Below the pieces are notes generated by a model. It was not told the origin of the DNA, did no database searches, and worked only from the letters and a program-made list of their open reading frames with translations. Below are positions 39,368 through 43,031 of a DNA stretch of 64,000 nucleotides, piece after piece. The stretch covers positions 62,001-126,000 of the forward strand of contig RSEE01000130.1 of the NCBI GenBank assembly GCA_003971905.1. The letters are read 5' to 3'. This DNA is from Moniliella sp. 'wahieum'. Taxonomy: Eukaryota. The translations under genes and the position numbers were made by a program. Numbering within the stretch: position 1 is the first letter of the stretch; each line of letters begins with the position of its first letter.

Positions 39368-39549
39368 TGTCACAGTCGGGGCTAAGGCGAGGGAGACCAG
39401 GATCGGACTAGGCCAAGGGGTGTAGCAATCGTTCGTGGGGAAGAAGCAAGAACGAGAGGACATGGTGCGAAGTGGAAGGAACAGGGAAGGAGCGAGACGC
39501 TCGAGACGAAGAAATTGGAAATGGGAGCGAGATCAGCCAAACTATGACA
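39368..39549 (-). repeat. 3' LTR (182 bp)
   Basis: TGTCACAGTCGGGG...AAACTATGACA. Differs from the other LTR only by four 1-bp indels. Confidence 0.95.
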
Positions 39550-39561
39550 TTGCCCCCTTTC
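39550..39561 (-). other. Polypurine tract
   Basis: The minus strand reads GAAAGGGGGCAA immediately before the 3' LTR. Confidence 0.8.
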
Positions 39562-39566
39562 AGACC

Positions 39567-41200
39567 TCATCTCCCGGCGGCGACGGAGGCGAGAGAGGGC
39601 GAGTCGGCGGGCATGGGAGACAGGCTTATCGGGGTGGGGTAGAGGGCGTGGAAACGGACCACTGGCTCGGCGTCATGAGACATGTCCGCAGGGTACCCAC
39701 TCCCGCTCGTGGACAGGATAGCCCCGGAAGTGAACAAAGTACTCAATGCGGCCACCACGACCCTTGCGGCGAGAGTCGAGGACATGTTCAACCTCGTGAT
39801 GAACCGCACCATCATCAGCATACTCGGGGAGAGGAGGCGGGGCTCAATCAAGCGGGCAGGGACCACGTCACCAGGGGTGTAGGCTCGCAAGCGGGACACA
39901 TGGAACACGTCATGGAGGTGTAGGTAGTCGGGGAGGCGGACCTGGTATGCGGCGCGGCCCACGGCGCGGACAATGGGAAAGGGGCCGAGGTAGCGATAGT
40001 CGAGGCCGTCAGAAGGCCGCTGGCTGGCCACATAGCCGTCCCGACGGACCAAGACAGGCTGGCCAGCAGTGAAGGAAGCCGCCTCGGTGCGCTGCTGATC
40101 GGCATAATGCTTGTAGCGGTCTTGGGCCGCGGCGAGCGTGCGGCGGGCCACCGCCTGGGCCGAGCGCAAGTCCTCCAAATATGACGCAGCATCGGGCACG
40201 GGCGAAGTGGAGGGCTCCAACTCCCCCCGGGAGAGTAACCATAGGTGAGGACAAAGGGGGACTGGTGGGTGCTCGAGTGGGAGGACGAGTTGTAGGCGAA
40301 TTCGGCCGTGGGGAGGAGGTCGAACCAGTTGGACTGCTGCTCGTCGAGGTAGCAGCGGAGGTACTGTTCGAGGATCTGGTTGAGTCGCTCAGTCTGGCCG
40401 TCCGTCTGGGGGTGGGACGCGGTGCTGAGGCTCGACTTGATGCCCAAGTCGGCACACAAGGCTTGCCAGAAGTGGCTTGTGAAGGTCGGTCCCCGATCAC
40501 TCACCAGATCCCGGGGAAGGCCATGGTAGCGAAAGACATGGTGTACAAACTGGCGTGCGAGCTGGGGCGCAGTGTCCGTCGTGTGGGCGGGAATGAAGTG
40601 ACCCATTTTGGTACAACGATCCACCACCACCAGAATCGCGTCGTAACCATTGGATCGGGAAGCTGGGTAATGTGGTCCATCGTCAAGTGGGTCCACGGGC
40701 CTTGGGAGGGGAAAGGGGCTGAAGGGGTCCGGCGGGTTGGTGGCAAGGCGCTTTGGTCCGTTGGCAGCGGTCGCACGAGCGCACGTAGGCCCACACGTCG
40801 GCTGACAGGCGGGGCCACCAATATTGAGCGCGGACACGGGCCAACGTCTTGTCGCGCCTTCATGGCCCGCCAATGCCGAGTCGTGGGCTTGGTGGAGAAT
40901 GGCAGCGCGGATCGGCCGGTCGGGGGACGTAGACCTGGTTTCCGTGCCACAAAAGACCGTCGCGGACCGTCAAAGCATGGGGAGGTGGGCTTGGAGCCGT
41001 AGCAAGGGACCAACGAGGGTCACGAGGCACGAGTTGGCGGATGCGCTGTCGAATCTCGTCGGCAGACGCTCGCTCCACCACCGGTGTATCGGGGTCCGCC
41101 GCCATGAGCTTGAGGGCGGCGGCAGAACGTTCGGACATGGGCTCCGCCAGTACTTGAGGTGCCGCCCAGCGGGCCGGGAGGGAACCGAGGGGAAAAGGAA
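39567..41200 (-). CDS. Retrotransposon integrase with GPY/F motif and chromodomain (frameshifted)
   Basis: DGLLWHGNQVYVP; HHCC zinc finger AHDS..AGH.G...YWWP....VRSCDRCQR; MDHITQLP; ILVVVDRCTKMGHFIP; HGLPRDLVSDRGPTFTSHFW; STASHPQTDGQTERLNQILEQYLR; YLGPFPI...HDVFHVSRLR; chromodomain HEVEHVLDSRRKGRGGRIEYFVHFRGYPVHEREWVP. Confidence 0.93.
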
Positions 41201-41228
41201 TCGAGTTGACAGAGGGGGGCGAGATGGG

Positions 41229-42812
41229 TTAGATGAGGAGGTGGACTTGGGCCGGGGCCCGGGCGAGTGCTGGTGCTGGTGCGTAGTCTTGGTCTTGGGC
41301 TGGTCTGGGTGCTGGGGCTGGTCTTGGGGCTGGGGCTGGTCTTGGTGCTTGGGCTGGTCTTGGGGCTGGGGCTGGTCTTGGGGCTGGGGCTGGGCTTGGG
41401 GCTTGGGGGGAGTTGGGGCTTGGGCGGGAGTTGGGGCTGGGGCTGGGCTTGGGGCTTGGGCTGGGCTTGGGGCTTGGGCGGGAGTTGGGGCTGGGCCGGG
41501 GTACAGTCGTGGAAGGCATATGGTGATCACGGCACTGCGCCTTGAGCGCGGCGCTCGGTGCGCCGGGCCGCCGCTTCAGCGGTGGCGGTGACTGCGCTGA
41601 GGTCCATGGGCTCCGCTTCGGGCGACGAGGGCCGAAACCAATGATTGCCGCCCGATCCCGGGGAGATGGCGGTACCATGAGCGCCCAGCGATTGCGATTG
41701 GTCGATGTCAATGGCCGCTGTGCGCAGTTGTTCGAAACTGATCGTCCCAAGTGAGCCGACTCGCCGCGGGAGGCGATTGCGTCACGCACCCGCGGCTTCA
41801 AGCCGTACAGAAAGCAATAGTAGCGGTCCTCATCCGACGCGTTGGGGTTCCAGCGAGCAGCAGAACCGTGAACGTAGCGGAATAGTCCGCTGCAGATCCC
41901 GTCTGCCGAAGACGACGAAACTCCTCAAACGCCTTCAGCGCCGGGTTGGCTCGCCCCACTGCTCCAGGAAAGCTGCGCGAAACGCAGGCCAAGACTGGAG
42001 GGCGGGTGTGGTGCGCGCCTCCAGGGGAAGGGCCACCTCCGAGCCGAACTGCTCGACCCAAGTGAGGGCCTCTCCCTGCAGCAGGCCCATGAAGCGGTCG
42101 ATCCATGCCGCCGCGCCCATATGCGTGAGGGCGACGCGCGCGTAAATCTCGAAGGAGGTGACGACGTGCTGGGCCTGGACCCGGTCACGAGAGTTGGGAT
42201 TCGCACCAGACGAGGCGGAAACGAACGGGCTCGAACATCTTAGGCTCTTCCGACCCGTGTTCGGGATGGCAGTCAGATCACCATAAGGCCCAGGGGCGGG
42301 AGGGGCGGGGGCCGAGGACACCACGAGTTTGAGCCTCCCGTACCGAGGCGGCCAACGGGCCTCTTCCGCGCAAGCGCCGCCTCCTCCCGCCGCTGACGGA
42401 GGCGGTGCTCACGGCGCTTCGCCTCTTGCTCATCCTCGAAAGCGGCGCTTCGCCTCTGCTCATCCTCGAAAGCGCGCGCTGGTCCTCCTGGGCTGCAAGG
42501 TAGCCTGTGTTCCCGGCCTCCGTCAACAGAAGCTGGCGCATTCTGCGGGCCTCATCGACCCGGCGCTGAGCGGCCCGAGGTCCAGGCCGGACAAGTCGGA
42601 GGCAGGCAATGTATACCCCGGGGCGCGGCGCAACAGACGGAGCTGCATGGGGGGGTTCAGAGGGCCCAGCCGGTGGAACCACTCCGGGCCATCGTCGTCG
42701 AACGGAGGTCAGAGGGGGGGTCGGACGGGGGTCGGATCGGGCCGCGCCGCGCGATGGGGTGCGGCGCGCTAGGGTTACTGGGGTCACGGGGGTTGTCGTG
42801 GATCGAGGACAT
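41229..42812 (-). CDS. Retrotransposon Gag-like protein with a Pro/Gln-rich repetitive C-terminus (frameshifted)
   Basis: LLQGEALTWV...SWPAFRAAFLEQW; FEEFRRLRQTGSAADYSATF; FLYGLKPRVR; PMDLS. These are typical Ty3 capsid motifs. Tandem 6/18-bp repeats at ~41285-41495. Confidence 0.8.
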
Positions 42813-42842
42813 CTCTGGTCGGGCTCGCCTGTTGACGGTTAG

Positions 42843-42851
42843 ACGAACGAT
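42843..42851 (-). other. Primer-binding site, self-priming type
   Basis: The minus strand reads ATCGTTCGT 2 nt inside the 5' LTR boundary. It is exactly complementary to ACGAACGAT within the LTR (42920-42912). Confidence 0.75.
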
Positions 42852-42853
42852 AA

Positions 42854-43031
42854 TGTCACAGTCGGGGCTAAGGCGAGGAGACAGGATCGGACTAGGCCAA
42901 GGGGTGTAGCAATCGTTCGTGGGGAAGAAGCAAGAACAGAGGACATGGTGCGAAGTGGAAGGAACAGGGAAGGAGCGAGACGCTCGAGACGAAGAAATTG
43001 GAAATGGAGCGAGATCAGCCAAACTATGACA
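42854..43031 (-). repeat. 5' LTR (178 bp)
   Basis: TGTCACAGTCGGGG...AAACTATGACA, followed by GTCAT. Confidence 0.95.

Follow-up and report, generated by a model that had tools for sequence, protein, structure and literature searches.

How does a long terminal repeat (LTR) retrotransposon come to carry a capsid region and an integrase with nothing of the enzymes that normally lie between them? This question is raised by a 3,664-bp element at positions 39368-43031 of a 64-kb stretch of contig RSEE01000130.1 from Moniliella sp. 'wahieum' (assembly GCA_003971905.1; this whole stretch is called the window below), with its coding strand on the minus strand (Table 1). An initial annotation, made from the letters alone, had suggested a mobile family that encodes Gag and a chromodomain integrase (Gag-IN) and borrows protease (PR) and reverse transcriptase (RT) in trans. 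The copy is real, recent and unable to move by itself. Most probably it is defective and relies on intact relatives, and the reading favored here, with a probability of roughly 0.6, is that of a deletion derivative of a self-priming Ty3/gypsy chromovirus, which integrated in its present form.

The absence of the central enzymes was examined by family profiles and by full-length relatives. No RT, RNase H (RH) or protease family was recognized by Pfam (E ≤ 0.1) in any of the 16 minus-strand and 11 plus-strand stop-to-stop frames. Eleven of the 120 listed polyproteins, used as tblastn queries, all match solely 41174-39579 of the window, and their PR, RT and RH parts have no match anywhere in it. 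For P0020, the closest of these polyproteins, the match covers residues 659-1173 of 1190, from about 15 residues past the RNase H motif ADALSRR to the C-terminus. The internal region, of 3,304 bp, is filled by gag (about 1.27 kb), a junction interval (378 bp) and the integrase (about 1.6 kb), so that no space is left for PR-RT-RH. The loss of these three domains, as first described, is thus upheld by the profiles on both strands as well as by the polyprotein searches.

What is retained of pol is an integrase complete through to its C-terminus. The Integrase_H2C2, rve, SH3_Tf2-1 and Chromo families are all detected by Pfam, in four separate minus-strand frames, with the chromodomain at the integrase C-terminus (27.9 bits for a cut-off of 25.1). 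Residues 659-812 of P0020 align to 41174-40704, which corresponds to the linker and the H2C2 domain, and the pre-integrase motif, the HH and CC pairs, the second D, the E, the YLGPF motif and the chromodomain are all visible in the P0020 alignment. The first D of the core is found in a third frame (WTHLTMDHITQLP) owing to 1-bp indels. The HHCC, DDE, GPY/F and chromodomain motifs listed in the initial annotation could therefore be confirmed by the Pfam matches and this alignment. The 827-residue protein P0025, which contains integrase families only, was considered as a possible Gag-IN protein and rejected, since it is a gene model fusing two integrase pieces.

The gag side required a more distant comparison. 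P0123, in which Retrotrans_gag (E 4.4e-10) and Ty3_capsid are recognized, follows the window colinearly across three frames from 42276 to 41763 (tblastn, summed E 3.5e-19). This colinearity extends by eye, via ...PMDLSAV...RRTERRAQG, to the LCFYCGEKH of P0123. A gag query against 1.8 billion representative proteins gave three matches (phmmer, HMMER), with P0123 at E 3.4e-4, and the gag pieces themselves have no Pfam match at E ≤ 0.1. P0121 and P0122 were dropped as gag relatives, as repeat proteins without a gag family. The Gag capsid announced earlier is thus present as a Ty3-type capsid region, recognized through P0123, but its zinc knuckle is gone: gag ends where its relatives carry the CCHC knuckle. 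The 31-bp tandem duplication observed in the N-terminal part of gag has, as assembled, a length not divisible by three.

The ends of the element are well preserved. The two LTRs (39368-39549 vs 42854-43031) are separated by four 1-bp indels, without any substitution, and the element with its flanks reads GTCA, TG...CA, GTCA, a 4-bp duplication, or one of 5 bp when the shared T is assigned to the flank. The description of a short element with near-identical LTRs, an intact target duplication and an intact polypurine tract (PPT) abutting the 3' LTR is therefore retained. A search for a second copy of the element or of its LTR (41-mers with up to 3 mismatches, and blastn) found none in the window. 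Among metagenome contigs, 379 pattern matches to the gag alignment were obtained and none was confirmed, and a 30-nt LTR word gave no match.

Further insights were obtained from related sequencing data. Three runs were listed, and X1, labelled as a food metagenome, alone holds part of the window (35% of sampled words). The listed runs include no RNA run with this sequence, which carries no information on expression. Its contigs were aligned at 88% likeness to 38700-45500; the statements below concern the 24 of 73 pieces and 9 of 12 loose ends listed, which can show presence, not absence. Runs X2 and X3 were given no weight, with minisatellite matches only, in short high-depth contigs of other origin. 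One X1 contig joins 39363 to 43032, skipping 3,668 bp, which is the length of the element plus one GTCA; its left flank is 99% alike (2 differences in 199). Such an empty site in a related sample implies that the insertion is recent and polymorphic.

The X1 data also help in reading the broken frames. Three extra single bases in an X1 contig bring 40320-40916 into one frame (scripted comparison). The corrected segment aligns to P0020 with 69% identity over 197 residues (285 bits), to be compared with 52% over 215 columns (182 bits) and a separate fragment in a second frame before correction. At each of the four LTR indels, one LTR has the same reading as X1. The minus-strand gene of a host SNF2/RAD5-RAD16-like helicase (49559-52907) is also split into several abutting frames. 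Its abutting or overlapping frame switches, seen against two orthologues, point to an assembly-wide rate of about one indel error per kb or higher. From the X1 indels, the LTR indels and the SNF2 breaks, most frameshifts are likely to be indel errors of the assembly, and the gag and integrase frames are thus not to be judged from the window by itself. Stop-to-stop ORF (open reading frame) lengths before and after the X1 indels were uninformative, all frames being long in this GC-rich DNA.

Between the two coding blocks, no pol homology was detected by Pfam or tblastn in 41166-41543. The Pro/Gln repeat tract noted earlier at about 41285-41495 corresponds to the 18-bp array that makes up most of this interval. 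The ORF 41229..41924 combines a gag segment, a knuckle remnant (QCRDHH) and the repeat, and the ORF 40860..41228, which contains the integrase linker, lies in the same frame (41924-41228 = 696 = 3 x 232). This shared frame is weak evidence in view of the indel noise. The single Gag-IN fusion ORF that had been envisaged is not what the assembly displays, with an in-frame TAA between the two ORFs and many 1-bp indels.

The primer-binding site (PBS) proved to be of another kind than expected. The sequence ATCGTTCGT, 2 bases past the 5' LTR, is a perfect complement of the LTR-internal ACGAACGAT (42920-42912), and this 9-nt complementarity was matched in 1 of 5000 LTR shuffles. The minimum-energy fold pairs 42843-42851 with LTR 42912-42920, with an overall z-score of only -1.38. 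No TGG-type tRNA primer site follows the 5' LTR, the window contains no tRNA gene, and no Rfam family was found in 36000-46000. A primer site is thus present, as claimed at first, but it is complementary to the element's own LTR instead of a tRNA. It is predicted to be of the Tf1/Tcn1 self-priming type. According to the relevant sections of two sources (PMC7175516, PMC6317226), Tf1 primes itself with the first 11 bases of its transcript, released by an RNase H cut, and self-priming has been proposed for Tcn1 of Cryptococcus and the Tcn1 clade. A self-priming element without RNase H is unable to produce even its own primer.

Relatives of the element are found in X1. Two contig regions covering the LTR and adjacent internal ends differ from the window at 3 of 362 and 3 of 338 positions, and the differences amount to 6 of 597 in the integrase, 6 of 174 in the linker and 19 of 831 in gag. 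One X1 contig departs from the 3' LTR at 39454, by a 1-bp indel, and by one substitution at the most. Since the X1 contigs are 95-99% alike over LTR, integrase and gag, the family is present in a related strain at loci other than this one. The X1 gag contig leaves the window at 41540 and continues for 100 letters, 30 of which read A-C-F-Y-C-G-S-R-D in one frame, colinear with the LCFYCGEKH of P0123. The relatives thus retain a CFYC-type knuckle that the window has lost. Past 41540, the window shares two short blocks with the X1 knuckle (by eye), as if about 15 nt had been lost. On the other side, the match of the X1 linker contig (record 6) ends at 41165 and leaves 51 letters unaligned, and no contig among those listed bridges 41166-41539. 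The partner-like pieces are a PBS-LTR-PPT contig that departs from the window only by 1-bp indels and few substitutions, and the knuckle-bearing gag contig, with no RT-bearing contig linked to them. To judge from these sequences, X1 appears to hold longer or different relatives, with no Gag-IN junction among the listed contigs. The PBS-LTR-PPT contig, of 724 nt, runs from the PBS side (42515-42852) through an LTR to the PPT side (39367-39728), an order compatible with tandem copies, with a one-LTR circle, or with a path of the assembly graph across a multi-copy repeat.

Substitutions between the window and X1 were also classified. Of the 39 within-element differences listed, 33 fall in homology-defined frames, 14 of them synonymous and 19 not. 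Roughly one quarter of the substitutions is expected to be synonymous without constraint. The observed share is somewhat above this value, for a small sample in which the X1 copies are possibly full length. At two integrase positions, the X1 residue is that of P0020 and the window residue differs.

Table 1. Features of the element and its insertion site (window positions)
Feature	Positions	Strand	Remarks
Target-site duplication, left copy GTCA	39364..39367	.	Flank sequence; X1 empty-site joint 39363->43032
3' LTR (element orientation)	39368..39549	-	182 nt, TG...CA
Polypurine tract, GAAAGGGGGCAA on minus strand	39550..39561	-	12 nt abutting 3' LTR; read from sequence
Chromo	39676..39813	-	Pfam E 2.3e-6; 61% identity over 46 residues to P0020
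Integrase SH3/GPF module	39879..40055	-	Pfam SH3_Tf2-1 E 1.6e-14; YLGPF in P0020 alignment
Integrase catalytic core (D, D, E)	40187..40700	-	Pfam rve E 4.3e-10
Integrase_H2C2 zinc-binding domain	40704..40969	-	Pfam E 3.8e-14; HH 40969-40925, CC in frame 40859-40704
RNase H-integrase linker including DGLLWHGNQVYVP	40860..41174	-	Full-length pol homology begins here
Junction interval replacing zinc knuckle, PR, RT and RNase H	41166..41543	-	378 bp, mostly tandem repeat
In-frame TAA between gag-side and integrase-linker ORFs	41229..41231	-	ORF coordinates, sequence
18-bp minisatellite	41286..41495	-	11.8 copies, 86% matches; Pro/Gln/Ser/Ala-rich in three frames
Ty3-type gag (capsid) region	41540..42276	-	Four broken frames, ends ...RRAQG; tblastn P0123
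31-bp tandem duplication	42412..42480	-	2.2 copies; charged N-terminal part of gag
Likely gag start codon, MSSIHDNPRD...	42810..42812	-	First ATG past PBS; putative
Self-priming-type primer-binding site	42843..42851	-	2 nt past 5' LTR; 9-nt complement to LTR 42912-42920
5' LTR (element orientation)	42854..43031	-	178 nt; predicted self-primer and transcript start 42920-42912
Target-site duplication, right copy GTCA	43032..43035	.	Flank sequence; X1 empty-site joint

How could such a copy have been produced? Internally deleted, defective retroviral and retrotransposon genomes are known to arise by template switching. The internal deletion would go back to template switching or recombination, no later than the round of reverse transcription from which this copy issued. 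A full-length relative would then have provided the proteins to package, prime, copy and integrate the RNA, the self-primer requiring the RNase H cut of this helper. All that is needed in cis is retained, namely the LTRs with their TG..CA ends, the 9-nt primer site and the polypurine tract. The preservation of Gag and integrase coding would be a by-product of the breakpoint positions. The present copy shares with template-switch defective genomes the internal loss, the retained cis signals and the helper dependence; it differs from them by its 378-bp repeat-rich filler at the junction.

Several observations weigh against this scenario. Only a single copy is seen, in a 64-kb window; the helper is a putative one, and the copy may have lost its middle after arrival. 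The absence of substitutions in 2 x 180 nt of LTR gives a loose age bound only. The empty site comes from a single contig of a metagenomic sample, with a depth of 2.77 and a shorter (right) side of 48 letters; beyond these, X1 cover is absent for 43240-45500, which could reflect low depth or a structural difference between the strains. The junction has candidate points at 41540-41543 and at about 41165. Moreover, another X1 contig follows the window on the left side of 41543 but continues rightwards with at least 255 unlike letters; it could come from another element variant or from a host locus with the same repeat.

An unlikely alternative is that a full-length element was inserted and later lost the segment from knuckle to RNase H by illegitimate recombination or slippage, the minisatellite growing at the scar. 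Tandem repeats are indeed abundant in this genome, with 31 TRF rows in the 64-kb window, and the junction interval is mainly the 18-bp array. The short LTRs (about 180 nt) date the insertion poorly and so leave time for a second event, yet two events would still have to fit within the age set by LTRs with no substitution. The preserved nominal frame and the position of the breakpoints at domain borders are not readily expected from such a loss, nor is the presence of junction-side sequence in X1, despite the empty site there.

Slightly less probable still is an established semi-autonomous Gag-IN family, which would supply its own capsid and chromatin-targeting integrase and depend on a helper for PR, RT and RNase H. 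In its favor, both breakpoints lie at domain borders, one where the knuckle starts and the other about 15 residues past the RNase H end, the integrase is complete to the C-terminus, and gag, knuckle remnant, repeat and linker follow each other in one nominal frame with a single TAA. However, this TAA is in frame, the nucleocapsid knuckle is gone, and a product without PR would require a helper protease and retained cleavage sites. The intact cis signals and the polymorphic insertion suit a mobile family, as does the synonymous share given above, although the substitution count is small and the copies compared are possibly full length. The X1 contig matching left of 41543 shows that this sequence is present outside the locus; against this, no second copy lies within the 64 kb and the junction occurs in no listed X1 contig, while a knuckle-bearing gag contig does.

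A more specific version, in which a propagating semi-autonomous chromovirus makes a knuckle-less Gag with a Pro/Ser/Gln-rich tail, reaches the chromo-integrase by read-through of the TAA, and relies on a full-length partner for PR, RT and RNase H, the self-primer cut included, is a speculative proposal, a shade less credible again. If true, a Gag-IN lineage would be a division of labour undescribed for LTR elements. If the junction were common to many copies, an element that gives up RT but retains integrase and chromodomain would also inform the questions of which retroelement proteins prefer to act in cis and of who decides the target choice in helper/parasite pairs.

The least probable explanation is an assembly artefact, either about 2.6 kb dropped at the repeat tract or a consensus mixing reads of different copies: the assembly has evident 1-bp indel noise and no independent contig bridges 41166-41539, but PR-RT-RH is unique and does not lie between two repeat copies, unlike the usual cause of a collapse, and the LTRs, the duplication and the 3,668-bp skip describe a coherent insertion, even if the skip gives no true insert length.

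The favored reading, a deletion derivative of a self-priming chromovirus, can be set beside known systems. The best relatives are fungal chromovirus polyproteins. The element resembles Tf1/sushi and Tcn1-clade chromoviruses in its H2C2 domain, DDE core, SH3/GPF module and C-terminal chromodomain, and also in its LTR-complementary, predicted primer site 2 nt past the LTR, of 9 bases here and 11 in Tf1. It differs from them by the absence of PR, RT, RNase H and zinc knuckle, and without RT no clade placement is possible. Chromoviridae are characterized, in the pertinent part of Muszewska 2011, by an integrase bearing a C-terminal chromodomain. The integrase modules and the chromodomain are found here, and the PR-RT-RH-IN order is not. 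The copy is descended from a chromovirus without being an autonomous member of the group.

It belongs to the non-autonomous LTR elements with partial coding capacity, a kind already described. LARD and TRIM elements have no internal coding region, in contrast to the gag and integrase homology observed here, and TR-GAG elements have gag as their sole coding capacity, whereas a complete integrase-chromodomain is present in this copy. As outlined in parts of PMC11302176 and PMC9744471, TR-GAG and semi-autonomous partners, those of BARE-2 type included, keep gag without RT and would be mobilised by an autonomous partner with the same LTR ends and PBS. The same sections mention RLG_Quinta (GAG and an unknown domain, no RT/INT) and RLG_Sabrina_SA (GAG-Pro), which reach hundreds to thousands of copies. 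TR-GAG, RLG_Quinta and RLG_Sabrina_SA are without integrase, in contrast to the single copy with a complete chromo-integrase described here. The earlier statement that non-autonomous classes generally lack integrase was nevertheless too strong: a sugar-beet survey, in its relevant section, includes families with decayed INT/CHD remnants, with 15 families in which one or more POL domains (RT, RH, INT, CHD) persist in partly decayed form, eight of which have GAG/PROT remnants (PMC13570524). These remnants are decayed, whereas the integrase aligns here end to end. Among the most successful LTR elements of fungi, the majority miss at least one of INT, RT, RH and AP, according to a passage in PMC3248453. 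No family with intact gag and chromo-integrase minus PR/RT/RH surfaced in searches of an open-access library, which is not proof of absence.

As a defective copy only, the element would still provide a tidy case of the birth of a non-autonomous LTR element. The young insertion is also a sign that a self-priming chromovirus family is active in a poorly sampled Ustilaginomycotina lineage. The host is a yeast-like basidiomycete; the window is eukaryotic DNA of 55-67% GC with fungal host genes. The best named relatives of the SNF2 ORF are from Ustilaginomycotina (Tilletiaria, Violaceomyces, Microstroma, Malassezia), with only 39-48% identity, which suggests that the host is a poorly sampled member of, or a neighbour to, this group. 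A comparison of a host ORF with the Protein Atlas gave no usable match. Other tandem repeats are found around the element: a 9-bp microsatellite, TTCTCGTCC, lies at 38498-38668 (19.3 copies, 96% matches), 700 bp from the insertion, and an (AGAGGG)45 array, one of the 31 tandem-repeat rows, is located at 48504-48777 within a long ORF.

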